A stretch of 62,960 nt of DNA, counting the filler, from Sluysia triapertura (lineage: Eukaryota): assembly GCA_046118255.1 (NCBI GenBank). It is 5 parts of 5 records of this genome, joined end to end, with 100 filler letters (N's around TTAATTAATTAA, not from the genome) between each part and the next. Parts side by side here need not be neighbours in the genome. Positions count along the whole stretch, not along the records: positions 40,036 to 51,309 come from JBJNIA010186503.1; 4 more parts are not named here. One strand, given 5' to 3'. The position numbers were made by a program, and so were the translations under genes. This document shows, piece by piece, positions 23,730 to 51,309 of the stretch (positions are counted from its first letter, which is position 1; every line of letters starts with the position of its first letter). The notes beneath the pieces are model-generated. The model ran no database searches. It was given only the letters and a program-made list of their open reading frames with translations, and had not been told where the DNA came from.

Positions 23730-24195
23730 CCCTGGTATATACTAAGCGAACTGACCCTACAGATAATTTGTTAGGAATAAGGAAAAATCTAACATTATCA
23801 TTAAGTTTAGAATTTGAATTAAATTGAAAAAATCATATAACTAAATCGATCACTAAGTTAAAATCCTTTTTTTGCAACAACACCTTAATAAAAGGGTTGT
23901 GCAATATAAATAAAATACTCTTTTCGATACAACATCTCAGCAAGAGAGTTGTGTAATTTATTTTCTTGACAACACCTTAATAAAAGGGTTGTGTAATTTG
24001 TTAAAATCAAAAGATTTAAGCAGTTGAATTGAGTTTATTTAGTTATATTGATTAGTAATTTAAGTTAATTTAATTAGTTGTAAAATCCTAATAATGCGTC
24101 TCCAGAATTGGTATAAAACGTATATATTAGGTGGACCGATCCCTCAGATAATTTGCTGTTAAGTGTAAGATAAATTGTAAAAACACCAGCAGTAG
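23730..24195 (+). mobile_element. Solo/partial LTR related to the LTR at ~41750-42231
   Basis: aaatcctaataatgcgtctccagaattggtataaaacgtatatattaggtggaccgatccctcagataatttg aligns with 42128-42200. It carries the same caacacctt..aagggttg hairpins, a partial duplicate of the 3' block at ~23740-23770, and no adjacent PBS. Confidence 0.8.
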
Positions 24196-26567: not shown

Positions 26568-29500
26568 TCCTGCCTTTAATTTTCGAAATAGGATTTTAAA
26601 CGTTTAAAATTAATTTAAGTATATTTTAAAATTTGTCTCCAAAGAGCAAATAGAACTTAAATAAATAAAAAATTTTCCAATAAAGATAGACGCCAAATGT
26701 AACGCTCTAGACACGCAGAATTTATCAGTGAAATTGAAATTATAAAATTGTAACTTTACGAGAGTGAGTGAAAAATTTGTTGGATTATATATCAGTCTTT
26801 AGCCAATCACATTCGTCCACATATACTAATAAAATAGTTGTTTTTTATAAACAGCTAATACTAATAAGAATTAAATTTTGAAAAATAATTTCTTTTAAAT
26901 AATTACTTAAATTACTTATCCTAAAAATGTCGTGCCACCAGAATACAGAAATTATGATAATTTGTGGATATATTTGCAACTCTGAATTAAAGGAAATTTA
27001 AAATTTTTAGCGTCATATCTATCCTAATGATGATATATAAAATGCATGGCATGAAATTTTATTTCCATTTAAGAATATAGCACCTTGTGAACTACTATTA
27101 GGACCATATCATTTTTAGAAAGTAGCTCAAAATATCTTGAGGCAAATTTATCACACCTTTCAGTTTTGTGGCAAGCTTTTTATGGACAAATTGAAATATA
27201 TTATTAAAATAATAGAATTCATAAAATGGCAAACATTTTCAGAGCCGAAATTTATAAAATTTCAGGGCTTACTTGGAAACTAATTATTGGTTGTTTCACA
27301 TGACCATGCAAACTCACAAATAAATGCTTTTGAAAATACGTTGAAAAAAGAAAGATAAACTGAAAATATAATTCTTCATGCAATAGAAAATGTAGGAGTT
27401 CATAAAAAACGAAGAAAATAAATGATTACTTATGTCAAACTCCTCTAACGTTTCGTCGAAAAAAAGTAATTCGATGATTATTGATAATTATAATTATTAT
27501 GTGCAAAAAGACGAACATAATAATTGAACCAGTGATGAATTTAAAAATTGAACAGTTCATTTGTATAATTTCGAAGGTGTCATGGGAGACACTAGCTGGA
27601 GTTATGAAAGCACATTGTGAATTAGGAAAAACAATAATGATGTAAAATTTGAAGACATGATTATGAGAATGGACACATTATTACAACTTAAAGATATTAT
27701 TTTAGATTTATTTTAATACATAGTTGTATTATATATTATTAAACATAATTTCTATTCAGTGTTTTTGTTTATTTGAGTAGTTAATTCTAAAGTTCATAGA
27801 AAATTTATAAAAAAGCATAGTAATTTTTGTTAATTAGATTGATTAAAATTTCAACAAAATCCTGTGTGGATGACAACTTCAATTAATCAATATCCATTCT
27901 TTAATTAATTTTTGCCCAAATGAAAAAAAGTTATCTTACATATTAATAATTTGCCTTATGGTATCCAATTCGGCATAATAGTTATAAATGGATTTTACAT
28001 AAATGAATTACACAATTTAATTGCGAATTAACTAATTTCAGATACTGTCGATAGTGAAGTTGGCTTGATTTTTCTATCCCATATACGCAATAGATAGATG
28101 ACTTATTTTCATCTTCGCAATCTAAATGTCCATCAAATTCAAAATTTAAAAATTATTATTAACTCATGAACCTAAATTAAATTATATAATGCATTGGCGT
28201 ATCATCCAAGTGTATAAGTATTTTTAAAAAATATATAGATTTTAAATGAAATAAGTGTTGTCAGGTAGCACTAAAATTCCAAACAAAGTTTAAAGTCATA
28301 ACCCTTTAAAATCCTTGAAAATAACATAATAACACTTCGAAATTATTTAAAAATCATTTAAAAAATTTTCGAAAAAGAAAATTCACTTCTAAAAATTGAA
28401 TATAAGCTTGCAGAATGTTCTAGAACTTTATTATTTAGTATTATATATTTCAAGATATTGTAGGTAAATTTAAAGATGGAGATCAAAGTAAATAATAAAT
28501 AATCGTATTTTAAAATATAAATAAGTTTCAAATAATTACTTACTTACAAAAGTAATGTATACAATTTTATTTTAAAGTGGTATAATTTGATTGGATGGAA
28601 ACTGGTATATAAACCAGTGAAATTTCAGTCAAGTTCAGAATTTAGTCATTAGTATTCAATTTGAGTTTTTGTGATATTAATTGTAGCCGATGAGTAATTC
28701 GTCACCATCTTGTTTTATTTATTCTAAATAATTATATAATAAACTAGTAAGATTAAATCAATTGTAAAATGTATTGTATTAACACAAACTTTAAAAACAG
28801 GTAAAATAATATTTATAATTGCTATTTTGTCCGATTGAATGAGAGCTAAAATCATTTATACAATTCATTAATATTAAAATTAAAGGCCTAAAAACTGTAC
28901 TGTTCTAACAACAATTCTAATTGTGATTTTATATTTATCACTTGATAATTCATTTTTACGATTTGATTTAATCATTGTTGAATCTATTCGTGTAAACCTT
29001 CTAAATTTTTTGTATTGAAAATATTAATTACGAATTTGTGAAAAACTTGGTGTATATTGGTGTCACACTTTAAAATGCATTTAGACATTAAATAATGACT
29101 ACTAGATATTTCTCGGATTCTACATATACGAAGAGTTATCATAAATATTAAGTTGCAATATTCGAAATTTAGAGTCAAATTAAATTCATATATTCGTTGT
29201 AGTTATGTGAACGTTTTAAGTCTCGTACTGTAACCGTATTTTTCAGTTTACCCTACATTTAAAAAATAATCATAAATTAAAATTTAATCTGACTAATTCG
29301 AAAAGGTTTAGGCAAAACAAAACAAAACAAAACCAAACATTCTAAATTAAAATTTCGTTTAATGTATTTTCTAATTTTCAGAATTTAGTTGTTTACTGAA
29401 ATAAATAGCTAATTTATAACGCTCATTTTAATATATTGAATGCTCTAAGATTGTACAAAATATCGACTGCTCCAAAAATAAAATATCACAATGTTTTAGG

Positions 29501-30252: not shown

Positions 30253-33200
30253 ATGGCTCGAAAAAAGCAAGAAGTAGCTTTACAAATTGAAATTAATTCA
30301 CAAGAAGAATGGAAAGATATGATGCAAAAAGAAGGATTATATGGTAAAATGATACATTGTTATTTTTGTAATAGTAATCGATGTATATCAAGATTGGTGT
30401 GGTCCTTGTAAAGCATTAATTAATTTTTTTCGTCGAATCAAAAACGAACAGGGAGATGAATTATTGAATTTTGCAATAGCTAAAGCTGATACTATTGATT
30501 CATTGGAGAAATATCGTGGTAAATGTGAACCTTGTTTTTTGATGTACGGCGTAAGTTATAATATTTTAAAAAGTGTATTTAATATTTTATAAAGTAACAC
30601 ACTATTTATATCATTTATAATTATGGCGATTGTTTCAAAATTATGAATCCTTTTAGCCAAGGAAAAATTTCATGCTGCCACAAATTATTGTTCAAATATG
30701 AATTTTACAGTAAATATGTTCAGCTAAGTTGCCATTCATCCGCCAGTTTCCAAATGTTAAGAATTGAACATAGATAAACTTTTTTGTATTTAATGTTGTA
30801 CGATATTTGTAACATAATAAAATCTTGATAATTTGCGTTATTTATTACAGGATAAATTTATCCTACATCTTCACAAATCCAAGTTCTTTTCAATCTTATT
30901 TGGCAAGAATAATAATAATAATAATAGTAGTAGTAAGAAAATTTATATTTCAATTTTTAAATTCTTTTATTCTCTCTTTCATTTTATCATTTTTTATAAA
31001 TTTGAAATATATTTCTCTTTATGTTCAGTAATTAATTGTTCCACATTTTATTTGGCATTTTTGAACATTGATAATTCAGATTTTGCTTTAAAGATTTCCG
31101 TTTTATTTAAGTTATTAGTTTTAATCTCTTAAAGAACTATTGCAAATTTCTCTAACATACAAATGTTGTGGTGTATTCTAATTTTTAGTTTAACAAAGTG
31201 GTTTCTGAAGGCTTCAACATTGATTTATTGGGGGGTATTGTACATTGATACAGAGTATTTGGAGTATTACTATTAATTGATACTTTAAAAATTGTTATTA
31301 AATTCAGAAATTTACGAAATTTATTGAAAAAAAATTTAAATAATGCTTAATACATTGATTAATTTTGTATTAAAATTTTGTCTAAAATTGCTTGTATATG
31401 CTACTGCCACATCTTCAATTGAACCTATAAATATAAATGTTAAAATGTAATCATCATGAATAAAAACTAATAACAGTTTAATAAAATTAAAATGTACTTA
31501 AGAAACGTTTTTATTGTCCATATAGTTATGTATTATGTTAATTTCAGATTCATCAAATTGTGAGCAAAAATGATTGATTGCATTGACCTAGGAATTGGTC
31601 ATAATTCATATAATCCGTGTGCATAAGGACAAGATTTTCCATACCTGATGCATTGGCCTGATATTGTAGTTTCGTATATACATAGTGCTGATTTAAAAAA
31701 ACTTGATTTATCATTGTTTTCTTTTTCATTAAACTTTCCACGAGAATAATTATGACTGTTTAGGTTCAAAAAATAACTTGCGTGTTTATCATCACTTATC
31801 ACACTAACTGGTCTTGAATGAGTAGTCGATAAAACTTGCTTGTCACTAAATGGCTCATTAGAAAAATTAGGTATTTGCATTACAGTTGAAATTGAATGGC
31901 CAATTTAGAGGTGAACCTCTGGTAAAACCGCTGCGTTGATCATTTGAGAATAAGTTATTTGTAAAGGATTGCACTGGTATAACGAATATTGTACATGCTT
32001 CTGCATTGCGTGACACTTATTTTTTAAATTAGCATTTTTATTCCTTTTATTTAATTTATCTAGATTTTCGACAGCTTTTTGTACAATAATTGAAGGCCAT
32101 GTATCATTATCTTTCGAAGTTGGAAAAGATCCACGTAATTCTGTATAACTACTTTTAATATTAGTACTTCGCTTTGTATCTGATAGATTGTAGATATTCT
32201 TTCTCAATCTAATCTCATCGGATAAATAATTATACGTATTAGAACTTGAGTACGTATGAGTTTGATTATGATCATCATATTCATAATCATAATCTTCATT
32301 ATAATAATCGTCGTTAAAACTGTTTACACCTTTAATTTTCTCGTGAGACATTTAGAACATCAAAGCTTGTTTTGTAATGTAATTTAAATTTAAATTTTAT
32401 AAATATAAACTTTGACTATTGCAATGATTATAAATTGAGTAAGTACTTTTTATTTGACGAGTTGATAATTTTAATTATTAAAAAGACTCTTTCACAAAAC
32501 CAAGAAATCAACTTTACATAAAATTATTATTACTATTATGATTTTGTCCAAATAAAAGATGATAAAACTACTTACAATTGGATGGCCAATAAAAACAACA
32601 TCAACTGAGTTGTTAGACAATAACTAATTTTCGTTTGCACACATAATCACTATTAGCTCAAAAATTAAAACTGTCAAATAATGACAGAGATAATTGCATT
32701 GTTGGAATGCTGTTGAAATATTTCTTTTTCTTACAATTGTGTAAAAAGTTTCTTTCTTAAAATTTTGTTAAAAAGTTTATTTGTTCTTTATGCTCTTTCC
32801 TTGTTTATTATTTGTATTTTGTTGAGAAAGTATGTTCTTTGTAATTCCTATTTCTTTTAATGATTCAAATACTTTACAGATCTTTTAACTGTTGTACAAT
32901 GCTAAAGTAATTGCTCGGGACTGTTGAATTTGGTTTCTGTTTTACAAAATAATTGTTATAATAGAAATAATACATGTTATAATAGAAATAAAAAGAAATT
33001 AAGGAAATTGGAGTTGTTGAAAGAAATTTCATTTATAATACTAATATATTTGAATTTGAATTGTAAATTTAATGATTTATAATATTATTTATGGTTTTAA
33101 TGTTGTAGGATGTGAGCTTAAAATTGTTTTGATATATTTACAATTTTGAATGATAAGGTTGGCCACCACAATTTATTATTTGTTTGACATAATTTAATGA

Positions 33201-34961
33201 AATAATAAGTGTGAATAAAGTTGTTTTGTTTGTGGCGTAAGATTAGCTTAAGGTTTTGTCTGACAAAGTTTGATTGTTTTAAAATGCTACTCTTTAGGTA
33301 ACTGATAATGATGAGAAATGTAAATAGTTGTACTAGTACTATTGTTAGACTTCATAAAATGGACTGACCAGGGATCGATGATTAAAAAACATGTATTAAT
33401 ATAATAGTTTTAGTCTCTTCTTTCTCTTTTTCTAGAGAAGGAAGGTAAACTTTCTTCTATTCAGGGTCCTTGTAGGACATGGTCGCGATATGCGTTATTC
33501 GAGGACTCCATAGCTAGTCTTACACACTGTCGTACCAGGGTCTTGATTTCGGTCTCGTGGAAGCCAGGTGCCTTGAGAAGCTTGTCATTCTCGGGATCTC
33601 ATGAGCCCAAGGCTCCAACGACGAATGTATCCAGAGACACCTTACATTTCAGTTGTTCCTGTAGTTTGCCCTGTAGATCAGAATACTTCGCAATATTGGT
33701 GGTTCGGGCTATTTCGAAATTTTTCTTCAGGTCCATGTGAGTTTTGACATCAATCAAGAACAGCTGCGATGAGGAGAATCCCTTTTGGGTCATTTTGTTC
33801 GTTAGGTAATTAAGGATTTTGTTGTGCCGGACTGTTCTGGCTGTGCTTGTGTGAGGACATAGACAGAGCACGTGTAGAGCACCATCGACATGATACTGGC
33901 AGATGGAAACGTATGTTCTGTGGACTGAAATTAAGACTAAGGATGTTGTTCCGGGCCTTTATTATAAACATCCATGCATTATTTTCCAGTTCCAGTGACA
34001 GGGATTAGTTGGAGAGTGGGTACTGCATGAGAGAGTCGACATAGATACCCTGGCACTTGAGAGATTTCCAGATATTGGTATTGCAAGTGCTGATCAACTC
34101 CTGTAGGTATTTCCCGACTTTATTCTTGTGGTAGTGGTTAATGAATAATTGGGTTATCGCCAAGTATGTTCGACTTCAGTGATAGTTGGACATTGTAGTT
34201 ATCAGAGCAGATGAATGAAGCAGTAATCTGGTACTTTTGTTCCAAGTTCTTAATAGATGTTCGGATTTTCGACCACCAGGTTTTTAACCTAGCGCACTTA
34301 ACCGTAGGACTTCCATTGAGCCATGCGAGAGCTTTGGTAAGATCCACCCAATTTCCATTCATCCGGCTGTTGGCTATTCGTATAACTTCCCGATGTGCCA
34401 ATGTGCGTAATATCGGTGTATGACTATTGAATAGTCTGAACGCACATATCACGTTTCTGACACATGTAGTTGTCCTATGCTAAGTTTAGGCTGAGTCCCC
34501 CATGGTTCCTGTGTGCAAGAAAGAAACTCCTGTTCAGTGGGTACTTTTTGAGATCGAGACACACTTTCAACAGTTCTTGTATCTTTTCGTCGTACTTCAC
34601 TGATTTGGATGTGCTTTTAGGATGGGGATTGCTGAGGGATTGTACATTGATGTTCAGTTTCTTTAGATGGAACGGAAGTCTGGACTGCACAAAGTTCTTG
34701 TGCATGAGGAACTTATTCCAGATACTCAGTTTTAGTTCGGTGTATTTGATGTTCTCGTTTAATAAATCATTAATACTTTGCCGTTTATAGTCACCATATG
34801 GAACGCCAAGATATAGTTTGGTTTTCGTCGGAGTATTTTCGATTAGTAGTGAATATCTCAAGTCGTGGATGTTGTTGTTGAGCTATTAGCCCCGTCTAAC
34901 AATTTTTAGATTACTATAGTCCATTACACCACATGGCACTTTAGGCATATATTATTATGTC

Positions 34962-35285: not shown

Positions 35286-37155
35286 GGATATTATATATAA
35301 TAATCGGTATTTTTATTCTATAGATTAAAGATCCAGTTATTTCCGAAATGGAAGTAGATGAGAAAGTTGAAGAAGAAGAAAAAGATGTTGAAGGTAATTT
35401 TATTTAAAATATTTATCATTTCTAGAGTTAGAAATTACCAAGACGTGGTTTTCATAATTTTATTAAATAATGAATAAATAAACTTCATTTAAGAGCATCG
35501 AATAAATAATAGTAGTTTTCAGAGACGATGAAAATATATTTAAATGTTCTGACAGGATTCAAGAAAACAGCATGCCTTATATATTTCAAAAATTACATTT
35601 TTCTAGAGCTTTCATGATTGGCTAATGAGAGATAAGAAATTAAAATTGCGTGCTATTTGTGAAGTGTCTCATGCAGGACCGGATTTAGGGTTTTGAACTC
35701 CCCTTTCATAGAAGAATATACAAATTTACTGCGAATTTAAAAAAGTAAAAAATAGTAAAAAAGGCAAAAAATCAAAATTACGCAATAAATAGCTGCTAAA
35801 AACAAACTTTTTAGAGATAAAAAAGCACTTTTTCTGCATCAGTGTTGTGTGATAAAATCCATATGATAAAAATTCTTAAGTTTCATTATTTTTATTGGGA
35901 AATTTTTGTTTTTGTCTATTAATCTTTTTATTGAGCTATTACGAATTCTGAATAAACAAATAGTTTTCTTATGACTAATATTACAATTATTAAATCTGTT
36001 TACAATTTTAAAATAATTAGCGTTGTGACCTTTATTTGGTATTATTAAAGAAAAAAAATTTATTGCTTGCTAAAATAATCGATATCTCATACAAAATGAT
36101 CGATTTTAATTTATGAAATCTAAAAACATAATGAATGTAAAAAATGTTTTATTTTTATATCGGCGTTCCGGGCATTCGCCCGGCTTGACCGCCCATTTAT
36201 CAAAAACTCTCTTATATGTATGTATGCACTTTTGTAACGAACTTATTCTAAACATTTACAGAATCATAACTATTTCATATTATTAATTATCTAATAATTT
36301 TTGGATGCTACTAGATATTACAGAATCGAATTATCTATCGGAATCATATACGACGACAACTGTTGTACTTGATAAACCGATCACTCTTATCGATGATAAA
36401 GGTATTATTCAATGATGAAGTAGCCTGATTTTAAAAATTGGTACAAAAAATGCAAAAAAAGTAAAACATTTAAATGAAACAATTAATCAATTGTATTTTT
36501 TCTTTTTTTTTAAATTGAAAAAATGATTGAAATTTTTTGCATTATTTGTAAAATCAATTTCAGTAATATTTTACTGTAATTTTTACATTTTTATTTTCGA
36601 TTTAATTGTAGCACGTATACATTCTTTAATTGATTTGTTTTCAAATTTTAATTATTTATTATTTTATGCATTTAAATTATTCAGTTGTAGAACGTGAAGT
36701 TACTCTGGCATTAATTAAACCAGATGCTGTTAAAGCTGGAAAAGTCGAAGAAATAATTGAAAAAGTAATTAAATAATGTTTATCTACTTTTTATTATAAG
36801 GAAATAATTTATTTACAAAAATAACTATTTAATGGCTTTTTAAATAATTTTTATTTACTTTTTATTACAAGTAGATAATTTATTTACAAAAATACTATTT
36901 TAATTCGGTTTAGTTACAAGAATGTGGTATAGAAATTTTGGCACGACAAGAAAGATGTATCACTGAAGAAGAAGCTAGAAATTTCTATCATCACATGCAA
37001 GGTACTGATGTGTATGAGAATCTGATAAAGTTTATGATTTCTGGACCATCTCATGTACTTGTATTAGCAAAAGGTGATGAAGGTATTATATCGGAATTCA
37101 GAGAATTAATTGGACCCAAAATTGTGGATGAAGCTAAAGAACATGCACCAGACAG
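30253..37155 (+). CDS. NME8: Thioredoxin domain + nucleoside diphosphate kinase domain protein (NME8/NME9/TXNDC3, outer-arm dynein IC1-like), 5' part; exons 30253-30343, 30375-30550, 35083-35199, 35324-35393, 36685-36764, 36914-37155
   Basis: GT-AG introns keep the frame. Product: MARKKQEVALQIEINSQEEWKDMMQKEGLYVIDVYQDWCGPCKALINFFRRIKNEQGDELLNFAIAKADTIDSLEKYRGKCEPCFLMYG/GGSLVSVIRGANPPLLEDTI...EVTLALIKPDAVKAGKVEEII...EEEARNFY...FMISGPSHVLVL...FRELIGP..VDEAKEHAPD. It has a WCGPC thioredoxin site and the NDK TLALIKPDAV motif. NME8 versus NME9 cannot be resolved by eye. Confidence 0.93.
31540..32351 (-). pseudogene. Intronless TIS11/ZFP36-type CCCH zinc-finger pseudogene nested in NME8 intron 2
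   Basis: ORFs 31905-32351 and 31599-31880 are in the same frame, separated by an in-frame TAA. FFKSALCIYETTISGQCIRYGKSCPYAHGLYEL*PIP matches YKTELC..C.YG..C.FAHG..ELR, with a probable CGA>TGA change. The second finger is mostly deleted (only FAH remains). Confidence 0.75.
33395..34870 (-). mobile_element. 5'-truncated, decayed non-LTR retrotransposon with restriction-like endonuclease (NeSL/Utopia/R4-type)
   Basis: YLGVP (end of RT), HGGLSL, FIIKARNNIL, CCHC remnant HVLCLC followed by RHN, LFLIDVK (PD-(D/E)xK region), KYSDL and FVVGALGS*DPEND. GC content is higher than the flanks. Confidence 0.88.
34961..35005. repeat. (TTA)n microsatellite
   Basis: Directly visible; further (TTA/TCA)n tracts at ~35043-35077 and ~35201-35285 flank NME8 exon 3. 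Confidence 0.9.
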
Positions 37156-39935
37156 GTTCATTATTTGATTTGTTTTGAATTATCTAATTAAACTGCATTT
37201 ATTTTCAATAGCTGAATATTTATCAAACATACCAAAGTAATATTAAAATAAGTAAATTTTTGTTTTTTGATGACATTTACTCATTTGTTTTTATTGATAA
37301 AAATGATTTAGATCGGCATTTTAAACTTTATGATTATATTTATGAGTTATCGTGAGTTCTTTTGATTTGTGCAGTTTTCGGTATCACTATCAAAACAACT
37401 ATTAATATATAAATAATTAACATAGTTCAAGGGTCCACACACAATAGTTGTCACTATTTAAATATTTAATTTATTTACTGATGAATAATTTTTTCATTTA
37501 TTGAATCTGTTACGACATTTATAAAATCATTATTGTACACATTAATTAGTTCACTTACATAACATTCTTCAATTTCACCATCCTTACTTGACTTGACCTT
37601 AAGTCCTGGCTGGATTTTAATGTTTCTTAATTTATTTTTAATTTCTCTTAACTAAACACTTTGAGCACGAATGACGTTAATAATGTATTATACTTAATAA
37701 ATGTTACACACAATGTTTTCGAAATTATCCCTCTGAATTTATATAATTTCAACAAATTATGCTATATGCTTTTCATCACATACCATTTTCAATGTGTTAA
37801 TTAATTAATGTACTGATTTTAAATTCTGATCACTTAATATTGTAACTTAAAATTTGGTGATGATTGATTAAATCACTTTATAATTGGATATTTTTTGAGA
37901 CCAAAATATGTGCTATTAAATTTTCATTTCCTTTCATTCCTAATGCTCGTGAACCACAAAATTAATTCAGGAGAAGTGTATGATTAAATAACAATTAATA
38001 AAATCTTACCTCTATTTATACTAATTTGGCTTCAAGTTTCTATTTGACGCATAACATTTTCATTTTTATCAATAATTAAAGTGTGAGTAGTATCGAGAAC
38101 ATGTTTTTGAATATTAAAAATATTCTATATATTTTCCAAATTGGTATCACTAATATATTCAATAATACATTTTCGTCCGAAACTTTTGAACATTACAGAT
38201 TACGGCAATTTTCCATAGTTTAGTGAAGAATCTAAAAAATAATTAATTATACTTAAATAAAAACATACGTTTAGTATTTCCCTTAAATTTTGTCTTGCTT
38301 ATTCTTGCATTTCGCTTATGAATGATTTTCTGGTTTTTGGTTTTTTAGGTATTGGCTTTCGCGATACTAATATTGTCTTACGTGTTTAGTATTACATGTT
38401 GCAGTTTTTATATTTTAAAAATAATTTGTTACTAATGGAGTAAGAAAATTATTATGTGGGTCTAAATTTTTAAAAGATGGTGGTCTTAAAAATACAGTAC
38501 TGAAAGAAAATGAACTTTTAGGTGTTGATTGTGCTAAAGAACTTTATAGAAGTAAACTGCTAGAATACGTTTCATAATTGTGTCAACTTGTTGATGATTT
38601 CTTAATTTTTGTGTTTACTTACTTTTGTATTGTTAAAACTTTTATGATTTTCTACACCTGTGGTACGATAACTTTTGCGATTATCATGTTATTAAAATAT
38701 CTGTACGGTCTTAACTTAGTGTCATAATATACATATTGTCCTAAATTCTTATTGTGTTCCCTTAAGTTATTAATCAATATTAAGATTTACTTCTTGCAAT
38801 GTTTATACTTGTTTTTCGGCCTACAATATTTTTGTGCTGTTTAAGTGTTTTTGTACAATCAATACAAGTATCATTAGTACAAAGGCGCTGATAATTTAAA
38901 ATGATCTTACACAATTATTACAAATATTTTAATATTTTATAATCCAAAGACTCGTGACAAAATAAAAATATTTTATATTTTTACTCAACATATTAAAACA
39001 ATAAAATTAATTCTGATAATCTAAAACCCGATGAAAATAATAATTTTATTATGGGTACCACGGAGAATATGTCTGGTATCCTGGATCGATCGGAACAGCA
39101 TTTCGACGCTGTTTATACTTTTAATACTGTTCTCTATTTCTTCTGCCGAATACCATTTAGTAGTAGTAACAATTGATTTATTTCGTATTTTCCTATCTTT
39201 GGCGAATTTGTCATATTTCGGCCAATCTTCCTTTTAAGGAACTCAGATTATCTGTCATACCCATCGGTCAATCGTCGTACCAATATTGTAGAATGAATTC
39301 TCCAGTGCTTCTAGACGATATAAGCAAATGAATATCTCCATAATATCTAAAACTAAATAAAATAAAAAACCCAATAACAAAATTAAAAAATAAAATACTT
39401 ACAAGACTCTTGTAGTTCGGGTATTGTTTCGTCAAGTGTGATTATTTCTAATGGGTCAACATTTTCTCAAATTGTCCGATAATTTGTTGACCCGCAGCAA
39501 TGCTCTTAGTCGCCCTATTTTGGTCTCATTACGGAAATGGTATTAGTTGTGACGCTTCAGCAGATCCATTTGATTCATAATAATTGATATAATAATTTGT
39601 TAAATCCTTAATTTAAATAATGTTTTAACTTGGAATTATCCACCAAAAAAGACACCAAATCATATTAAATTTTTTATACTACCTAAGCAAATTACATTTT
39701 TTTAATACCAAGTACAACTTTACCAGTAGTAAAAATAGTGACACAGGGTAGATAAAAAAGCTTAGTTGATAGCATGTTAATTGATTCGTCCATTTTAAAT
39801 GTGACTGCACATGTGTGTATTCAATCAATTTAGATTCTGATTGGATGTTAAATACATTCTGTTGGTTGCTTACATTCCGCAGTATGCATTACGTAATGAA
39901 TGTTTAACTTATATAAGACATAATTTAAGGTATAT

Positions 39936-40035: not shown

Positions 40036-41749
40036 ATAGTGACATTCTTACGTTAGAACCTTCACCGCTTTAAAATCCTACGCTCTCGTCCGTTTTAGGT
40101 AAACCGATTGACGTAGGCGAACCCAAACTATAAACATAAAATTAGTATTTTATAATTGTTCAGGTCGTAGTAAAACCGAACACAACATATTAAAAGAATT
40201 TTATTTAATATCAATCTCAATAACCTCAATTTTAGTAATTTAATAATCTTTATACTTAATTTAATTAAAATTTTATTTTTTAATTTTATAGTATTATTAT
40301 TAAAATAAATTTATAATTAAATGTGAATAGAATTCATTTTTGATAAATAATTCTCTGGAATTGTTATTAATTAGATTGTGGTAAATTTATTTGTCTAAAA
40401 ATTCGAGAAACTAATTAGTTTTAAAAACAAATACTATATTTATTTTTAGAAAGCAAAAATGTTGCATTGTTTATTATCATTACTAATATTATTATCATTA
40501 TTAATAATATTATTAATATTCAAATAATTTTTCAAAGAAAAAAATAATCAATGATCAAAACCAGAAATAAAAGTAAAATAGTTAGGCAACGGCGAATATT
40601 TTATTATTTTACACAATCAAAATGTATTAAGCATGAATTTGCCTATAGTAGGTAGCTAATGCCTTATGGTAGCTAACCCTGAGGATTTTCTTTATTTATT
40701 GAATGCGATGAAGAATTAACGTTTCTGAGACACGTATCTGAAAATATAATTTTTAGATTTTACAAAAATATAGTAAATCAATTTGATTTAATTATGTAAT
40801 AATTTAAAAAAATTAATTTATTTGAAAAAAATCAAATTTGGACATTTATTGCACTAATCTAATAAATCAAATTTGGCCATTTATATTATTTGCAGAAATA
40901 AATATTCGGATATTTTTGACAAGGTAGATAATATTAGTAAATTAATATAAGTAGATCGAGAGAAATAATTGGAAATAGAGAGGAAAATTCAAAAACAGTT
41001 TTATAGTTAATTAAGAATATTAATATTCGACAATGTAACGAATCTGATTAAAATAACAACCGCAGTGATCCATTCGGAATAATATTCAACTATTTGTTTA
41101 TTAAGTTTTGTCTTCCTTCCGTGAAGACTTAAAATCCTACTCAAATTAGTAAACTTTTTCAACCAGGCCTATAGCATATAAAACTTTTTGTTATGTCAAG
41201 ATCAATTACATCAATACCTCTGGTAGCTGAAAGCGATTAACCGTTATAATTCTTCGTATTATCAACATTATTCGATGTGTCAGAGTGCATTTTGTATATT
41301 TTGTAGTTTCTAATTTGTATAATATTTCTTTTTATCTGTATAAATAATTTTTATTATAATAAATTTCAAATAAAATAAATTTTAAAATAAAATTTAGTTT
41401 TTTTAAAAAATATAAATTTTAAAATTTCTAATATTTCAAAAATTATTTTATTAAAATTTTAAAACGAATTTTAATATCTATTTTAAATAAAATAAAATTT
41501 TGCTTAAATAAATCAAAATTAAATTATTTTTTATTTTTCTTTAAATGAATCAATTTAATAAATAGAAGACAACTTCCAATATGGAGTAAATCAATTTTAT
41601 ATAAGTACGTAAGTTTTTAGCAAAAGTAACACAAATTTTTATAAAGTTCTTTCGGAGAAAATTTCAGTAGATAAATATTCCATGCTTTCCAAGTAATTTT
41701 TTATTGTTAGGATTTTCCAATTTACTTTAATAATGGAATAGTAAAATAT

Positions 41750-42231
41750 ACTTAAAGTCATTTTTATTTTGATGCAACACCTTAATATGGGTTGCGAAAC
41801 TTATTTTAAAACTGCCAACCGAGGTTGAGCTAGTTAATTAACTTATTATCGTCATAATTTTAATGTTTGTAAGAACTTTAATAAGTTTTTTCTTTGTTGG
41901 TAATATATACTTTAAGAGAGTTAGAATGTTCTTAATCTATAATAAACTTAAAAAATCATTTTTGTTAAGCAACACCTTAATAAGGGTTGCGTAATTATAA
42001 AATGTATAAGTTTAATTAAACAACACCTCGTAAATGGTTGTATCATAAATTAATTAATGAGTTACAAGTGATTCATATAAGTCGTAAGTGATAAGTAAAA
42101 AGTTTTTTCTAAAGTTAAATTATAAAAAAATCCTAATAGTACGTCTCCAATAGTGGTATAAATCGTATGTATTAAGCGAACCGACTCCTTAGATATTTTG
42201 TAAGAATACGTTTCTAAGAGAAACACTTGCA
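41750..42231 (+). repeat. 5' LTR (start uncertain; ends ..cacttgCA)
   Basis: Homologous to 23870-24190 and ends in CA five nt before the PBS. Confidence 0.7.
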
Positions 42232-42236
42232 AAATT

Positions 42237-42254
42237 TGGCGCCCGAAATGGAAT
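42237..42254 (+). promoter_or_regulatory. Primer binding site, tRNA-Lys(UUU)-like
   Basis: TGGCGCCCGAA matches the first 11 nt of the canonical tRNA-Lys3 PBS (TGGCGCCCGAACAGGGAC). It lies between the LTR end and gag. Confidence 0.8.
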
Positions 42255-42683
42255 CACTTGAAGCATATTATAAGTTTTCATTATTAAATCTATTTGATAA
42301 GTAGATATTGATTAAATTTGAATATAAGTTTTGTTATTATTGAAGTTTTTTGATAAGTTTAAGTTAATATTGATTAAGTTATATTTATTGATTAAGTTAA
42401 GTTTATAAGCTTTAGGTTTTGATAAATTTATAAGTTACGATTTTTGATTTTTGAAGTTACATTAACTGTGTTGATATTAAGTTTAAGTTGTCGTATTGTT
42501 AATTGTTAAATACGTTTTGATGAATTGATTACGATTATTATATTATTGATTTTATTTTTACGTTTACATTTGATTTTTGAATATTATTATTAAGTAATTA
42601 CGTTAAGAATAGATAATAATAATAATAACCCTAAGAAGAAATATAAGAGAACTTTAAGAAGCAACTCACTTGAAAGAATTACA

Positions 42684-43740
42684 ATGACAGTACCATTTGA
42701 AGAATTTAAAGATTGTATGACTCAACTGACTCAGAATATTAAGCCAATAGTAATACTTCCAGAAATGCGCAATTTTAGTGGCGCCGAAGAGGAACTTTGT
42801 GATTTCTTATTTGAATTTGTTAGCTTAGCTGAAGCCTATGGCTGGACTCAAATAGATAAGGTTAAGAGGATACAATATTATTTATCTGGTGTTGCAATAC
42901 AAACCTATAAAGAGATAAAAGATGAATATAAACAAGAGTGGAACACATTTGTCTATGTTTTTACTGAAGAAATAGATTTAGAAGACATAAGAAAATAGTA
43001 TGCAAGAATGCTTAATATAAGAGTGCAGAAACCGCACGAAACAGTTTATGAATTTGCATGTGCGATTAGAAGTTTGGCGTCTAGAGCCAGAATTCCAGAT
43101 AATAGAAGGGAATAATATTAATAGATAAGTTTAAAAATGGGCTACATTCCGAATTACGAATTTATGTAGATTTAATCGAAGAAATGCCATTCAAAGACAT
43201 AGTTAAGAAATTAAGAAGTATTGAAAGTACTAAAAATGAAACCAGAAAAAATATAAGTTACATAGGTGATAACAAGAATACAAGAAATAATTATAATGAA
43301 TCCCCTAAGCATAAGTATGAGAATTTTTTTGAAGACAATAACTTTAATAGTAATATCGGTGGTTTTAATAGCAATAGAGGTAACAGTAACAATAACTTTC
43401 GAGGTAACAATAGAAGAAATTTAAATAATTTTAGAAATAACCCAGGAAGAAATTACGCTAATGTTGGTAGGAGTAATAGAGTGTTTGAAAAGAGACAAAT
43501 AAATAATATGGGCTCAAGAGGGTACGAACAACGTCCACTGCCAAGATGGCCTATTAATCAACCTAATAATAATAATAATAATAATAAGAGATAAGAGATA
43601 TTTTAATAAGAGATAAAAGTCCTGCACGATCAAATTATAATAACAATTATAAAGCTAAAACAAATATAGAAGGTGATATAGTATGTCACAATTGTGGTAG
43701 GCATGGGCACTATGCTCGAAACTCGAAAAATCGAATAAGT
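42684..43740 (+). pseudogene. gag: Gag (capsid + NC zinc knuckle), frameshifted
   Basis: FSGAEEELCDFLFEFVSLAEAYGWTQIDKVKRIQYYLSGVA, QKPHETVYEFACAIRSLA and LIDKFKNGLHSELR are typical retrotransposon capsid motifs. An N/R/G-rich linker follows, then the CCHC remnant VCHNCGRHGHYARN (~43681-43722). Confidence 0.88.
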
Positions 43741-44188
43741 TAAGGTCAAATACTTTTAAGCAAGACTTAAATAAAATGTCGAACTCTAGACAGACCTCAC
43801 CAAGAAGATTAAGTTTCGATATGAATAAGAATGAAGGACAAATAAATTATAATTAGGATGAGGAGTATGAAAAATATGATTATGAGAGACATCCAAGAAC
43901 ACTGACAGATGAAAAGGATAAATACGAAATGGATAAATACGAAATCAAGGAAGAAAAGAAGCAACCTAGGAGTAGGCATGATGATGAAGAGAATATGTTT
44001 ATTAATTGTTTACATAATTACTTTATGCAATTAGTAAAAGAAAATGAAAAAGAGGATAAGAAGAGAAAAAAGATAGAAGATAAATAATTAAAAGTGCTCA
44101 ATAAATTGAAGAAGAAATAAAGCATGCCGAAGCAAATGTAAGAAGATGAATCAAGCATAGTGGCATAACAGACGAGGACGGGGATAGA

Positions 44189-45075
44189 TTGAGTGATATT
44201 GATTGTGTATTAAACTTAGAAGAAGAAGAAGAAGAAATGGATGACATACTCTCAGATACTGAGCCAATGATTATTTTAGGTAATGAAGAAGATATACCAA
44301 CCGAGGAAAATAGCACGAAAAAAACAGCATTTAGTGGTTTATCCAAAAAGGTAAAAAATACAGTTAAAAATTTAGACATACTTTTAAAGATTAATTTAGA
44401 TATGTTTAAAAGACAAAGTATTCGGTCATGTTTACTTTACCTAAGTCAGGCAGATAGCCCACATAGCAACCTGAAACATTAACGAAAATTAACGTATTAT
44501 TAGCAGAATTGATAAATGTATTTATGGAATTGCCTGTTACTATAGTAGTAGAAGATGTAATAGATATGCTTAAATAAAGCGATCCATCAATAAAGGATAT
44601 GAAATTATATTTCTTTAATAGATATCTAGAACCTAGAGAATATTTAATAGATTACGGCTACCAGTTGGGTGATCATGATGAAATGATAAAGGCAGAAATA
44701 GTACATGAAAATTCAAATAATGCTGAAAACGTAACAAATAAAAAAGATAATGAATTCCCACGTACGTTACTAAGACAATTAATGGATGATGATATACATG
44801 TAGTTGACATTGATGATGAAGCAGAAAATAATGAGCTAGTTGTTATCGATGCTGAAGAAGAAAAAGATGAGCCACCTGATTATATAGTGAACCTTAATAA
44901 AAACCCACATATAGAAACCGTTGATAAGGAGACAAATACAATAAAAAGAAAACCTGGGCGTCCACGAAGAGACGAAAATGATATAATAACTGCACCTATT
45001 GTTAAGAATGTTATTGATTTGTCAAAAATAAATTGTGAAAATGATGATGAAATTGAATTAGATATTAAGGAATAA
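44189..45075 (+). pseudogene. Acidic region with AT-hook, inside the retroelement
   Basis: D/E-rich ORFs; KRKPGRPRR at 44944-44970 is a canonical AT-hook core (GRP flanked by K/R). Confidence 0.55.
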
Positions 45076-45077
45076 GT

Positions 45078-45430
45078 TATGCCTTTTTATCCGAAAAATT
45101 TACTAATTTTACTAAATATAAGAAGTTATTGGCGGAAATCAACAAAGTGTATAAAGTTTCTATATATAAATTAATAAGTAAGTTTGAAGAAAGATATACG
45201 GATAAAGATATTAGTGATTTTATAGAAAACGAACAATATAAAGTAGTGATAAATAAGTTAATTAATAAAGGATTTGATGAGGAAAAATTGAAAATAATCT
45301 TAACATACGTTATATACCAATACAACCAAGAAAAAATGGTTACCAAAAATAAAATAGATAATGTTATAGATTTTGTAATTAAGAAAACTAAATTATGGAT
45401 TGAAAATCAAGGAGGTTGGCGCAATATAAT
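45078..45430 (+). other. Putative Bcl-2-like domain inside the retroelement polyprotein
   Basis: BH2-like WIENQGGW at 45396-45419. It is preceded by amphipathic helices spaced like Bcl-2 alpha4-alpha6 (YKVVINKLINKGFDEEKLKIILTYV...KIDNVIDFVIKKTKL). The BH1 NWGR motif is not conserved. Confidence 0.55.
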
Positions 45431-45548
45431 AAAAGGGAAAAATAATCAACAAACGAAAAAGCCGACAAATATAATGACACAATTATTCGACAATAACAGT
45501 AACATATTAAATAATGCAATACCAAGGATAGGTAATTCGACAAGTAAT

Positions 45549-46700
45549 ATACTGTTTATCATAATACTATTATCAATGTTCGGCATAAATAGAACTAATG
45601 TAATAAAGGCATTTGACTGTAGCCAGCCACAAGTGAGCAGAAAATTTTCATTACTGGACAGTGAAGATTGTCCTGAATCAAGGCCAAATAGAATAACGGA
45701 AACCAATTATCAAGGAATTTATCTCTCAGAGAAAATAATTCAACAAGCTAAGAAAGGCGTTGATATAAAAAATATAAAATTAAATGCCTATTTTAACAAT
45801 AAAATCGATTTCTATTACCATTTAGGTTTGATTTCGCTAGAAAAAGTTTTAGGGATTGTTAATTAAACAAAGAAATTTTACGCACAAAATTGGCAATAGC
45901 TATTAGAAATCCAGACTTAGTCGTACCACTACTACCATTAGAAGAAGAAGTTTTCGGTCGACTAATGGGAGAGGTATTATACACGTATAAATGTAAAAAG
46001 GTAGAAGTGCAATTAAGGTCAACTACCGAACGCACAAATGAATCACCCATATTATACGATATTTTCAGAAATATACCTCGAACCAGTAACTAGAGTAATC
46101 TTTCCAAATAACAAAGTCAACAGTTAATGCACTGCTCTAATGTCATGGCACCGGAATATAGAATCGACGATAATTTACGGATAATTATTGGAGTCAAGTA
46201 AAAACTCCAGAAATAATAGAACTAACCGAATTAAAAGGAAGACTAAAATTTTTAGCTTCAAAAAATATACAAAATTCTGGCATTTATACGAATGACAATA
46301 TTCAAGCAGCCTGGCAGGAGGTATTATTCCCAATAAAAAGATCAAAAATATTAACTGAAATCGTAGATAAAGCAACAGTTGAAAAGAATGGACAAGTAAA
46401 TTTCGAATTACTATTGGGACCCGATCATTTTAAAAGAGCTGCACAAGATACATTGAAACAGATATGGGGAAAATTTTTAATAATAGGATAAGCACTTTCC
46501 GGATTGATAGAAATATATATAATTAAGGTAATAGCTTTGATAATTTCTCAAGCTTTTTCAGTAGTCGGAATTTATAAAGTCTCAGGATTTGCGTGGAAAT
46601 TGATAATTGGATGTTTTCCATTTTTGGCAAAATACCTCTTGCACCACCACGTAAATGCTCAAATAAACGCATTAAGAAAAGAAAGACAATATGCAGAAGA
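45549..46700 (+). pseudogene. env: Env: chuvirus-like (class III, gB-related) fusion glycoprotein, internally deleted and frameshifted
   Basis: Signal peptide ILFIIILLSMFG, then AFDC....SLLDSEDC, LNAYFNNKIDF, AIRNPDL..FGRLMGEVLYTYKCKKVEVQLRSTTE.TNE.PI.Y, EPVTRVI, CSNVMAPEYRI, and WGKFLIIG..LSGLI followed by TM segments. These follow the motif order of chuvirus G-like proteins. Confidence 0.8.
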
Positions 46701-46754
46701 AAGACTTATGGAATACTTAGATTTAGAAATTCAAAAGATGAATTTAGTAACACC

Positions 46755-47700
46755 AATATTAATACAATTTCATGATGGACAATTGGTGGACATCTATCTA
46801 AGAGAAAAACACTATCCAGAATAAAAAACAACTATTATTGGGAGGATATGGAAAATGATATTACAAATTGGTTGTTCAATGTGCTGCAGGAAAAAAAATA
46901 CAGGAACCTATGGAATTCACAGCAATGGACAGAATGGGACCATTACCAGAAACTATTAGTATATTATCGTATTTGCAATTTTTTGCCTAAATGGCCTGAG
47001 GCATATCCGATGCCGAATCAAAAGGTAGAGACCGTAGCGCAAATACTTGTAGAAAAATAATTTATAGATACGGCACACCAAGGAAACTGTTGACAGATCA
47101 AGGCACAAATTTTATCAGCGATATAATTAAATCAGTAGCGAAAATATTTAGCATTCTTAGAATTTATACATCATCTCATCATCCACAAATAGATGGATTA
47201 GTCGAACACTTCAACTAGACACTGATAAATATGATACAGTCATATATTAAAGATAGGCAATCCGATTGGGATTTGTACATTGCACCATGTTTATTCGCTT
47301 ATAGAAGTTCGTAAATCCAGCTACGAATTTTACAACATTTTATCAAATGTATTGACGGCATTCTAATATGTCTGTAGCTTTAGAATGGATACCACCAATG
47401 TCACAATACATGGAAACGCCAGAGTATGTGACAGTAATTCATGAAAGATTACAGGATGCATGGAAGCGCGCTGGCCTGCAAATAAAGTTTTCACAAGAAG
47501 CATACAAAGGTGCATATAATAAAAATGATAAAGAGCATAACTTTCAAATGTAACAAAGTACTTATTGAATATCCATTGACTATTCAATGGACAATCACCA
47601 AAGTTGCATAAACCATTTAAGAGACTATATGAAGTGATAAAAATTACTGATACTAATTTATTTGTTAAAGACACTACCAAAACATTTGTAGTACGTGTAG
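46755..47700 (+). pseudogene. int: Gypsy-type integrase, frameshifted
   Basis: HHCC region ILIQFHDGQ/GGHLSKRKTLSRIKNNYYWEDMENDI; KWPEAYPMPNQKVETVAQIL; RYGTPRKLLTDQGTNF; TSSHHPQIDGLVEHFN; DWDLYIAPCLFAYR; GPY/F-like PKLHKPFKRLYEVI. Confidence 0.92.
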
Positions 47701-47869
47701 GTGTAAAATAGCACCAAATAATAAATACAAGTTAAGAAATAGGGCAGTTACCAAATCACTATTAAAAGCTAAACCGAAAATTAAAGATCGTGATAAACCA
47801 CCAACAATACAATCATTAGTTGATAAACAAGTAATAATGATGCTTAATGTATCACTGGAGACCAACAAA

Positions 47870-48190
47870 TATTTTTCAAAACGTGCGTTTTAATGGTAGA
47901 TTGATCCGAGCTGTTCTAGATACCGGAGCTACCATATCTATAATACATTATATTTTTTTAACTACATGGGAACTTGTATTTATAGATCCACCACAAACAA
48001 TAATTTATAATGTTCAACGAGCACCAATAAATAAGAATGGAATAATACATACACATTTAGATTTAATAATTGGCTTAGATATACTTGACAAATTAGATGA
48101 CATGGTTACACATAGTAAGTACGGTCTTATGAAATTTCCACAAGGTGCACAACTATTACTTCCTCAAGTTGTTGTTCCATGTCTCAATAA
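47870..48190 (+). pseudogene. Retroviral-type aspartic protease located downstream of integrase
   Basis: VRFNGRLIRAVLDTGATISII (catalytic D at 47919) and LIIGLDIL. Confidence 0.85.
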
Positions 48191-49729
48191 TGACATCATA
48201 TTCCAACACCTGATCTTGAATTTAATAACCCGGTACCGCTGTCTCATCAATGTCAGAAGTAACAAGTGAATTTTCAGAGTCATCATCAGGAATTGGTTCT
48301 GTTGACACAGTAATGCTCACTTTTTCTAGTAAAAATAATTATAAGGCTAGGCAATCTTTCTGACATCATCATTATTAATATTAACGATTTTATTTTTAAC
48401 TTTGATTGGTACAGTTAAGCCAATAGATATTGAGTAAGATGAGGAATATAGAAATTTAAATGCAGCAATTAATAACGGAAATGAACAAAGAATATCAATT
48501 ACAGATATATATAATGAGTATCGGGAGTTAAAATTTAATTCGAAGAAAATGTTTTTACGTCATAACTTCGATATTTACTGCATCTATTTAGAACCATTAC
48601 TTATCGGAAAACCACATCATATAGACAAAACTCCACGTGGTTTGCAATATGCATATAGACCAATGCTAATAGCATTTGCCTTAGACACAAAAAGAAATAT
48701 AAGAAAGGTACGAAATTTAGTGCAAAATATAACAAACAAAGTCATAAATAATTGTACTTCTAAACTCAAGACTAGTAAACTATCATCTAACGACGCTACG
48801 TAAAAAAACTTACATTTTAGTTCATAAGTTGATCATTATCTCAGTAATTCTTATAGTAGTATATTCCATATGGATTATATTACATAGTTGATTTTAGTAA
48901 ATAAATTACGGACAAGTAACATTAATAAAAATTTGATACCTCTAATGATAACAATGATAATTACTACAGTCCAATGTAACTGTAATTAGAGAACAGTGCA
49001 AGTGATAGTATCTTAGCAATAGGCTGTGACAGTTGTAGGGAAATCACACAAAATTCATCACACTTCATCACATAAAAACATTTCACAGGTACACAGATTA
49101 TTAAACAAACTACTAAACTCTTCTAAAAAACAAACATAATCATCGCACATAATTATCATGAACTACAGCTATTATTATTACAATTCAAATCATATTAAAC
49201 TATATATAATAATTATAGTCATTGTTATATAATATGAATATCAAATAATAACTTTTATAATAAATTTCATATCAACATCAACAATTCAGTATTAATAAAC
49301 ATAATAACCACGTTATTGTTATCATTATTATTTCTTTTATCCTTATTATCAGTCTTTCTTTTTACTCTTCTGCTTTTCTCATTTTTATTTAAACAGTAAT
49401 GCTTAATCAGAAAGATCTCAAATTGTCAAAAGAATGTATCAAAAAGAAGCAAATGATGCGCCAATAAAATCATTGACACTGAGTAATGGCATATAAACAC
49501 GATTATTAGAAAGTTTTCTTAATACAGAAGATTCGGCAACATTAATGGAATCGTTTTTAAAAATTGAACAGCTTCAATTATTAGAAAATTCATTATCAAA
49601 AGAATCAACGATTAAACTTTCAACAATTACAAGTATTACGGAAATTATTATTTATTTATTTGCTAATGCCAAATTACATGATACTATGCAATATTAATCA
49701 AAAGTTTATCAATACATACCATTTACCGA

Positions 49730-49920
49730 CAGTTGTCACGGAAAATGTAACGTGTTGGAAAATAACTACTTTCACCAAAAATAGATAAAAATACTGAGAT
49801 CCAAAACATACAGAAATCCTATTTATGCAGAATTTGATAACACAATTTATTACAAATTAAATACATACAAAGTTACATATCAGTACTTTGTTTGCTCTCT
49901 TTGTGGCTAATAATTCCCTT
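49730..49920 (-). mobile_element. Fragment of the same Tc1 family as 4058-4602, inverted
   Basis: Sequence is the diverged reverse complement of ~4300-4510 (tgttggaaaataactactttc, ataacacaattt, atatcagtactttgt). Confidence 0.8.
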
Positions 49921-50711
49921 AAAATAATTAAAAAACAAAACAAAAATAATAAAAATTATAATAATTAATAAAAAATATTTATCCTATAAAATATCAATAT
50001 TAGTTTGATAAATAAAAGCAACTTTTTAAAATGTTTATACATGGACTTATTTTATTATTTATCAAACAAATTGAATGCTTCAATCATGTAGAAATAATCA
50101 AAAATGGTTGTTATATTGGTAAATTTTGTTTTCAAGAACATATAAATAATAATACATTTAAGTTTACAAAACAAATTTAAAATGCTCTGGAAAAGAAAAC
50201 TATAAAGCTTCTGTAGGTGAACCAGTATTCGACAATTTTTTCAATGGATCTATATACGTACGTAGTATTATATGCGGATTTAATGAAGATTATTCAGTAA
50301 TTGATGGAGAGTATAAAATGATTTATTTAAAAGTAATCATCATTTTAATAAAATAATTTATTTATCGCGCTCCACACAGCCACGAGTGCCACCTAATAAC
50401 TTTCATATCAGTATCATCAATACCACTATTTTAAAAAATATAATAATTACCGTATTGTTATCATTATTATTTCTTTTATCCTAATTATCAACCTTTCTTC
50501 TTATTCTTTTGTTTTTTCCCAGTTATATATTTATGTGTGTGTATCTGATAAGGTACTTGTCAATTAGGTACAGCTGTATTTATTATATTAACTTGTTAAA
50601 TCAAATATTATTAAATCAATGTCGAAAGCATTACTATTGCAAAATCAATCAAATGCAAATAACCTCCACAAATTCAAATAACTATATCGAATATTTATTT
50701 TTTTATGCCAG

Positions 50712-51182
50712 ATGATAAAGTTTCACTAAAGCCATTTGGAGATGATAAAGATAGACGTTTAAGTAGTATCCTTAAACGGAATTATTGTAACATTCATTTA
50801 CATCATAATAAATTGGTTATTAAAGGTCAAAAACGATGAAAGTCCATCTGTAGAATCAGCTGTCAAATGTGTTAAGCAAGTTTATCAATATTTTCCTAAT
50901 TTTTATGTCAGTACAGCTTTAGAACGTTCTTTGGTAGATATATCTTTACCAAAAGTATGTAATGCTAAACTTTTGAAAAGTGAAAAATTTTATTCAATTT
51001 AACGTATTTTCTTTACTTTCATGTAATCGGTAAACGTAGAAATGATTTTATTGTATGGTTAAATTCTGGTGTTTCGGGCCAACTAACATCGAGTCAGTGC
51101 GTTGTCTTAGCTAATGAAAATTGTAATCGTGATGCCGGATTTAAACGAAGCTATGTACAAATTCATGGACAAACTAAAACAG
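50712..51182 (+). pseudogene. Coding-like exon fragments of unknown gene
   Basis: Open stretches (NWLLKVKNDESPSVESAVKCVKQVYQYFPNFYVSTALERSL; NDFIVWLNSGVSGQLTSSQCVVLANENCNRDAGFKRSYVQIHGQTK) with AG/GT boundaries. Partly similar to 49400-49720. No family recognised. Confidence 0.3.
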
Positions 51183-51309
51183 GTATTTAATCGGTTTATC
51201 CTTACATCAAATAACATTGTATTTAATGCTACAGTATTAATATAATGGAAATGTTGATTTATAAGGATACTTATTTTTGCTTTTAATTACAATTGTATTC
51301 TATTTTTAT

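Follow-up and report, generated by a model that had tools for sequence, protein, structure and literature searches.

The stretch of DNA analysed here (the window; 62,960 nt) is AT-rich, with a GC content mostly of 19-32%, and is interrupted at 11481, 23464, 39936, and 51310 by N44-TTAATTAATTAA-N44 joints, which we read as assembly gaps; the TTAATTAATTAA linkers inside these joints produce spurious repeats in a repeat comparison. Between the last two joints lies a broken copy, about 7 kb long, of a Ty3/Gypsy retroelement with an envelope gene (env), and a second env relic lies further upstream. The features are:

41941..42236, + strand: probable 3' end of the 5' LTR (267 nt align to 23903-24155 at 64% identity)
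42237..42247, + strand: site resembling a primer-binding site (PBS), TGGCGCCCGAA
42684..43720, + strand: gag, a capsid-like region and a broken CCHC knuckle (tblastn, zf-CCHC)
43720..45068, + strand: acidic/linker region, decayed; KRKPGRPR at 44944-44967 resembles an AT-hook
45069..45449, + strand: predicted Bcl-2-fold domain, in frame with the env start (model of the window sequence, pLDDT 65)
45528..45608, + strand: predicted internal signal sequence before env (hydropathy 1.6; equivalent hydrophobic stretch in relatives)
45609..46742, + strand: predicted class III (gB/chuvirus-G-like) env, in pieces (PF24664 in four ORFs, tblastn, model of the relative P0001)
45609-45671: env motif AFDC..SL..C
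45687..45701, + strand: gap 1, in frame, about 240 env residues (domains I-II) missing (CP-to-TNY spacing)
45786-45812: env motif AYFNNKIDF
45968-46018: env motif GEVLYTYKCKKVEVQLR
46083-46100: env motif PVTRVI
46465: env motif WGKF, followed by a hydrophobic stretch from about 46492
46742..46756, + strand: gap 2, in frame, env tail to integrase, protease (PR), reverse transcriptase (RT), and RNase H (RH) missing (GCxP-to-GGH spacing)
46756-46779: integrase start motif ILIQFHDG
46756..47669, + strand: integrase (IN), with H2C2, core, and a GPY/F-like end (Integrase_H2C2 E 3e-8, rve E 2e-3)
47871..48131, + strand: aspartyl-protease domain past the integrase, LDTGA at 47916 (RVP E 1.4e-4)
48351..48890, + strand: candidate remnant of a second membrane protein (layout of a signal-like stretch, a 121-aa ORF, and a TM-like stretch)
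26926..27413, + strand: second env relic of the same family, more decayed (68% identity to 46409-46620)

The initial annotation described a chuvirus-like class III fusogen in a Gypsy element, running in frame into the integrase, and every glycoprotein motif that it quoted is found in the window. These motifs occupy three different frames; the frame changes at least three times, and a stop codon stands at 46489-46491. They go beyond chance because four separate ORFs between 45069 and 46824 match the Monjiviricetes_fusion profile (PF24664) collinearly, at profile positions 4-57, 340-404, 450-548, and 551-611 (E 1e-3, 2e-7, 7e-11, and 6e-3; two of these matches are above the curated cut-off). The env pieces retained are the N-terminus, the central helix region, the C-terminal ectodomain, the TM, and the tail, at 33-50% identity to relatives by tblastn. 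One ORF (46492-46824, stop to stop) does connect the TM and tail with ILIQFHDG, though for eight integrase codons only: these alone share the env frame, GGHLS at 46785 lies in a different frame, and the ORF stops 15 codons past ILIQFHDG.

The left border of the 5' LTR escaped detection; its LTR-like end directly adjoins the PBS-like site, TGGCGCCCGAA, which we take to resemble a tRNA-Lys PBS. No 3' LTR matching the 5' one was found from the element to the gap at 51310. The gag stretch carries stops and frameshifts; its zf-CCHC match has E 0.016, and tblastn with the N-termini of P0003, P0004, and P0027-P0031 matches it at E 2e-7 to 2e-13. The linker region gave no match with Pfam or phmmer, and the K/R-PGRP-K/R word that it contains recurs before env in P0005, P0007, P0008, P0021, and P0026 (by eye). 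The integrase is frameshifted and has small deletions, at 44-49% identity to relatives. No RT was found in the window by tblastn from RT-bearing relatives, a stronger test than a six-frame Pfam scan with stops read as X, which found neither RT nor RNase H and is insensitive, having missed env too.

Just upstream of env lies a domain, overlooked in the initial annotation, which by its structural model has a Bcl-2 fold. The 30 best VIA alignments of this model are all to Bcl-2-family proteins, the best (Z 8.8, rmsd 3.3, 108 aligned residues) lying under the caution line of the VIA tool for helical bundles and the first unrelated one at Z 5.5; the listed Foldseek matches are likewise all Bcl-2-family, yet at E of 0.15 or higher. 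A BH2-like WIENQGGW at 45396 marks the end of the helical domain, and the Pfam Bcl-2 profile scores E 0.08 in the window and 8e-5 to 1.5e-3 in four relatives. We favour the Bcl-2 assignment because of the unbroken series of Bcl-2 matches, the BH2-like motif, and the Pfam matches in the four relatives.

The relatives come from a phmmer search with the ORF at 45069 against 1.84 billion representatives, which returned 20 proteins, and from a cluster look-up and a profile search that enlarged the set to 32. All of them except P0009 are unnamed ENA/JGI proteins, and some are near-duplicates (P0007/P0021, P0010/P0024, P0008/P0026). Word-indexed protein searches with two window ORFs as queries gave no match, and searches of viral contigs and genome contigs found no relative. 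In the proteins, Pfam shows env, proteases, RT, RNase H, and integrase in single ORFs, with gag in the same ORF in P0028, P0029, and P0030, and Monjiviricetes_fusion is matched over its full length (E 1e-50 to 1e-95). The intact polyprotein can be written as Gag-(ubiquitin-like)-(Bcl-2)-env-protease(s)-RT-RH-IN-(protease)-C-terminal hydrophobic-bounded domain; all eight relatives with an integrase (2627-4844 aa, some incomplete) have the order PR-RT-RH-IN with an H2C2, rve, GPY/F integrase, of which the window retains H2C2, rve, and a GPY/F-like end. Since one ORF joins env with gag, PR, RT, RH, and IN in the relatives, the glycoprotein belongs to a Ty3/Gypsy element, as had been proposed. In an env tree (105 columns; 21 rows, two of them outside rows and none from Pao or viral G), the window sequence groups with the relatives that have the polyprotein, away from L003 and L005.

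Several observations concern single relatives. In L003 (1-3627), the integrase is succeeded by an env ORF of its own, a full one of the Monjiviricetes type (E 1e-254); this is an ordinary pol-then-env layout, at only 25% identity to the polyprotein clade. A separate DEDD exonuclease ORF (Pfam RNase_T E 1e-5, 1e-3) stands behind both full-length loci, at L001:10617-12104 and L002:12085-13470. P0009 (HBK71150.1), a Gypsy env-pol polyprotein, bears a Flavobacteriaceae MAG label and probably comes from an animal contig that was sorted into a bacterial bin.

The fold of the env family was modelled with AlphaFold2 on the intact relative P0001 rather than on the broken window copy (pLDDT 64.5, pTM 0.41; 80-95 over most of residues 180-460), and the outcome is a gB-like fold. 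Every PDB match that Foldseek listed for this model is a herpes gB (best E 6e-12, HSV-1 gB), and VIA aligns it to EBV gB with Z 10.9 and rmsd 6.3 over 342 residues; against BFVD, chuvirus and xinmovirus G proteins stand at the top (E 1e-38, Tacheng tick virus 4 G). On this model, the env family has a class III fold of the gB/chuvirus G type, and the fold, together with the PF24664 matches, supports the call of a class III, chuvirus-G-like fusogen gene. The fold is like that of Jingchuvirales/Xinmoviridae G and of gB, at 16-21% identity to the top viral G proteins and 9-14% to gB; unlike these viral proteins, the env of the window family is embedded in a retroelement polyprotein. The nematode Tas element, too, carries a gB-like env.

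If env runs into integrase in this copy, is that the design of the family? The relatives say no: a protease motif follows the env TM in all 15 in which the TM motif was matched (about 12 independent ones, given the near-duplicates), and RT lies between env and integrase in 8/8 that bear an integrase, so that env placed directly before IN is not supported as a family design and this part of the initial annotation falls. The GCxP-to-GGH spacing is 58 aa in the window and 874-2170 aa in the eight relatives with IN; at the DNA level, the env and IN matches are 4.6 kb apart in L001 and 3.25 kb apart in L002. The other gap is similar. CP and TNY are 9 aa apart in the window and 240-260 aa apart in all 16 relatives that have both motifs, and the missing interval is that of the domain I-II segments published for six Schmidtea elements (by eye). 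Fusion loops have been assigned to domain I (PMC13524379; here and below, the available part of that text), which is absent from the window copy. The order that the copy keeps is that of the relatives, minus env domains I-II and PR-RT-RH, and small deletions are frequent in both env copies of the window. We think it probable that the copy is a decayed Burro-like Ty3/Gypsy element, likely planarian, and that its env-integrase junction is a scar, most likely left where PR-RT-RNase H was deleted. The host would be a planarian, judging from the element family only. Against parts of this reading, both large gaps preserve the frame, no sister from the same genome was seen to span either gap, the contigs of sequencing run X1 being short, and BIR, RING, MATH, and dUTPase domains, reported for Burro, were undetected in the relatives by Pfam.

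The deletion reading has a competitor: the element may descend from a shortened, non-autonomous subfamily in which RT and the fusion domains were lost in frame, a single protein still combined Gag, Bcl-2, an env stump, and integrase, and spreading relied on full-length elements. Both large gaps preserve the frame (by chance, about 1 in 9), gap 1 takes out domains I-II almost exactly, and among the 6 loose ends listed, of 3251 in X1, none falls at either junction, as such a subfamily would have it. The frame is, however, broken by many other deletions of the window copy, and the short env-IN spacing occurs in none of the 32 relative proteins, which come from databases that under-sample broken or shortened forms. 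The second env relic also speaks against it, since it does not run on into integrase: it aligns locally to 46139-46742 with many gaps of 9-27 nt, its last two env segments, up to 46742, give shuffle counts of 3/500 and 6/500, and past 46742 it has no resemblance to the integrase side (458/500 and 474/500 shuffles). This comparison of sequences is weak but direct evidence that the relic at 26926..27413 does not appear to share the junction. On balance, we regard a shortened subfamily as unlikely.

Could the junctions instead be artefacts of a short-read assembler that jumped within a very high-copy repeat? Gaps interrupt the scaffold every 12-16 kb, and 24,737 contigs of X1 (the single run listed with the stretch, and possibly the source of the window; no RNA run is listed) fall on 40040-51300, an 11-kb stretch, most at 80-95% likeness. 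Since 62-77 distinct X1 contigs match at the listed env sites vs 3 at a pair of sites listed close to the ends, env is multi-copy, although the contigs are short, their depth does not equal copy number, and the joining of copies cannot be read from them. Against an artefact, the order of the parts agrees with that of the family and the decay pattern is particular to this copy, whereas repeat collapse would be expected to yield cleaner sequence; we give this explanation very little credence. An insertion of a separate chuvirus into one Gypsy copy would fit the chuvirus and xinmovirus G proteins at the top of the BFVD matches of the P0001 model, but it is ruled out for practical purposes, at a vanishingly small residual probability, by relatives that hold env in one ORF with gag and pol, by an env 37-47% identical to relatives vs about 20% between P0001 and viral G, and by the multi-copy env in X1.

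How much of this is new? The layout is that of Burro, whose reported order, in one frame, is gag, SUMO-like, BCL2, env, PR, dUTPase, RT, RH, IN, and which was called the first case of an in-frame env between gag and pol (PMC6431247; here and below, the available part of that account). Its env matches mononegavirus fusion glycoproteins and was loosely tied to F-type env; its size is giant, with an internal region of up to 25 kb and an ORF1 of about 4900 aa; and decaying fragments were reported in Dugesia japonica (PMC6431247). The related element Burro1 reportedly uses a BIR/RING region to protect stem cells (PMC13465017, in the part available). Like Burro/GYPSM1, the family has a CCHC Gag, a BCL2-like domain and a mononegavirus-like env in frame before pol, and a high copy number; the relative P0030 adds matches to the SUMO-like and ankyrin domains found in Burro (PMC6431247). 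In the window, too, a BCL2-like domain is followed in frame by env between gag and pol. Unlike the giant Burro, the window copy is about 7 kb long and has neither PR-RT-RH nor a 3' LTR. Pfam found no BIR, RING, MATH, or dUTPase in the window or in 30 of the 32 relatives, which were the ones scanned, while the published calls used the more sensitive HHpred. We thus class the copy as Burro-like, by its domain layout, and not as Burro proper, whose size it does not reach.

gB-type Gypsy elements have also been catalogued across animals, including hymenopteran insects; nematodes, bryozoans, and flatworms have forms with the order GAG-ENV-POL, and an ancient acquisition of the gB-type env is favoured (PMC13524379). 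Among them are six elements of Schmidtea, which reach up to 215 copies: Smed_errantivirus_1-6 fall into the Platyhelminthes C1a group of HSV/gB-type GAG-ENV-POL errantiviruses (PMC13524379). With these the family shares a Ty3/Gypsy pol and a gB-type env before pol (PMC13524379), an env position found in the window and in the relatives alike. By eye, the Schmidtea domain I-II segments have a YQESD-like start and a TNYxG[IVL][YF]xS end; YQESD..EC and TNYxGIYxS are common to the Schmidtea sequences and to the relatives/window, and TNYQGIYLS fits the end motif in 6/6 Schmidtea rows, as against 0/3 mosquito BEL and 0/10 bryozoan among the rows listed. The catalogue holds intact elements only (PMC13524379), whereas the window copy is broken, with no intact ORF holding full RT and IN; it is a relic of the gB-type GAG-ENV-POL kind, not an intact member. 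The words Burro, Bcl, in-frame, and polyprotein do not occur in the part of the main text of PMC13524379 that was available. More distant are the Anakin elements, mosquito BEL/Pao elements with a chuvirus-derived glycoprotein (PMC7642597, in the part available): they too are LTR elements bearing a chuvirus-G-like class III env (PMC7642597), but they belong to the Pao superfamily, not Gypsy, and the three mosquito BEL rows lack the TNYxGIYxS end motif.

Because the Burro layout is published and flatworm gB-type GAG-ENV-POL Gypsy elements are catalogued, the element is not a new capture; the in-frame BCL2-env-PR of Burro (PMC6431247) and the gB-type Gypsy elements (PMC13524379) had been described before the capture that the initial annotation put forward. 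What it flagged adds little: gB-type env proteins within Gypsy elements, their place ahead of pol, and their fusion to Bcl-2 have all been published, and the env-IN fusion is most likely damage. What the analysis does provide is a tie, for the Bcl-2-bearing relatives, between the Burro env and the class III fold.

In the intact family, the polyprotein would enter the ER membrane at its internal signal sequence. The N-terminus of env would be set free by signal peptidase, and on the cytosolic side Gag and Pol would be cut loose by the aspartyl proteases of the element itself. A gB-type trimer would fuse particle and cell membranes, and the Bcl-2 domain might delay the death of the producing cell. 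The window copy is dead, because frameshifts and stops are scattered throughout; without fusion domains and RT, and frameshifted, it would be inactive, capable of neither membrane fusion nor self-copying.

Two features of the relatives may be new, the number of their proteases and a second membrane protein predicted past the integrase. Each relative has one to seven D[TS]G protease motifs, and Pfam finds up to six protease stretches (in P0021); because four of the eight relatives with IN have such a motif after it, a protease past the integrase, as in the window, is a family trait. Six polyproteins, P0021 (4844 aa), P0005, P0008, P0026, P0029, and P0002, have three to seven aspartyl-protease motifs each, on both sides of RT-IN; some of these motifs are separated by ankyrin and C2H2 domains. 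Hydropathy scans of six relatives with an integrase show, in every one, a second hydrophobic-bounded region at the C-terminus. By eye, P0009, P0026, and L001 have similar tails, and a word of the kind C/A-x-x-L-x-P-x-T-x-Y was matched in eight of nine tails scanned. The layout is that of a predicted type I membrane protein, with a signal-like stretch, Cys-containing domain(s), a Thr-rich stalk, and a TM, at the C-termini of P0008, P0021, P0024, P0028, P0029, and P0030 and at L001:9098-9739 and L002:10069-10707. Pfam and PDB sequence searches gave no match to this C-terminal domain and did not confirm an FN3 identity. The candidate remnant at 48351..48890 in the window scores iE 3.6 against a profile of the relatives' domain and has no significant Pfam or Atlas match; Atlas searches with the Bcl-2-like part and the ORF at 48438 all scored under 0.9.

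The available part of the Burro account (PMC6431247) makes no mention of several proteases, a post-IN protease, or a C-terminal membrane domain, and our literature searches turned up no Gypsy polyprotein described with multiple proteases or with an FN3 domain, although Grohme 2018 and Lee et al. 2026 may describe such features. Such a layout bears on a question raised in PMC13524379, in the part available: how a lone gB-type protein could manage entry without gD/gH/gL. A tentative answer, which we hold to be possible but doubtful, is that the Burro-like polyprotein is a two-glycoprotein entry kit, combining a gB-type fusogen before pol with a post-IN type I attachment protein, up to seven protease domains, and a Bcl-2 domain that would keep the producer cell alive. 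The attachment protein would then comprise a signal-like stretch, one or two predicted cysteine-containing beta-type domains with the L-x-P-x-T-x-Y word, a Thr-rich stalk, and a TM.

The surroundings of the element hold further relics and host genes. Dispersed short repeats lie directly 3' of the element (49258-49377 and 50394-50516, 82% identity; 49733-49919 and 4302-4507, 73% identity). An LTR-like relic at 23850-24160 is 64% identical to 41941-42200 and contains repeated hairpin-like CAACACC..GGGTTG words, which occur again at about 41775 and 41970. The segment 15162-16342 (+) encodes a protease-like C-terminal half followed by hydrophobic stretches, with a weak match to P0009 (iE 0.007), and is possibly another relic of a related element. 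Host exons on the plus strand (30353-30592 and 36914-37168) encode thioredoxin and NDK domains of an NME8/9-like protein; those on the minus strand (21157-21624 and 31599-31904) encode a TMEM129-like protein and an Unkempt-type CCCH finger, the latter between the thioredoxin and NDK exons on the opposite strand. The thioredoxin, NDK, and TMEM129 matches indicate a eukaryotic host, in all likelihood an animal. Decayed ORFs at 33400-34900 (-), without a Pfam match, have a higher GC content and a CCHC-like and nuclease-like look, presumably resembling the end of a site-specific non-LTR retrotransposon.
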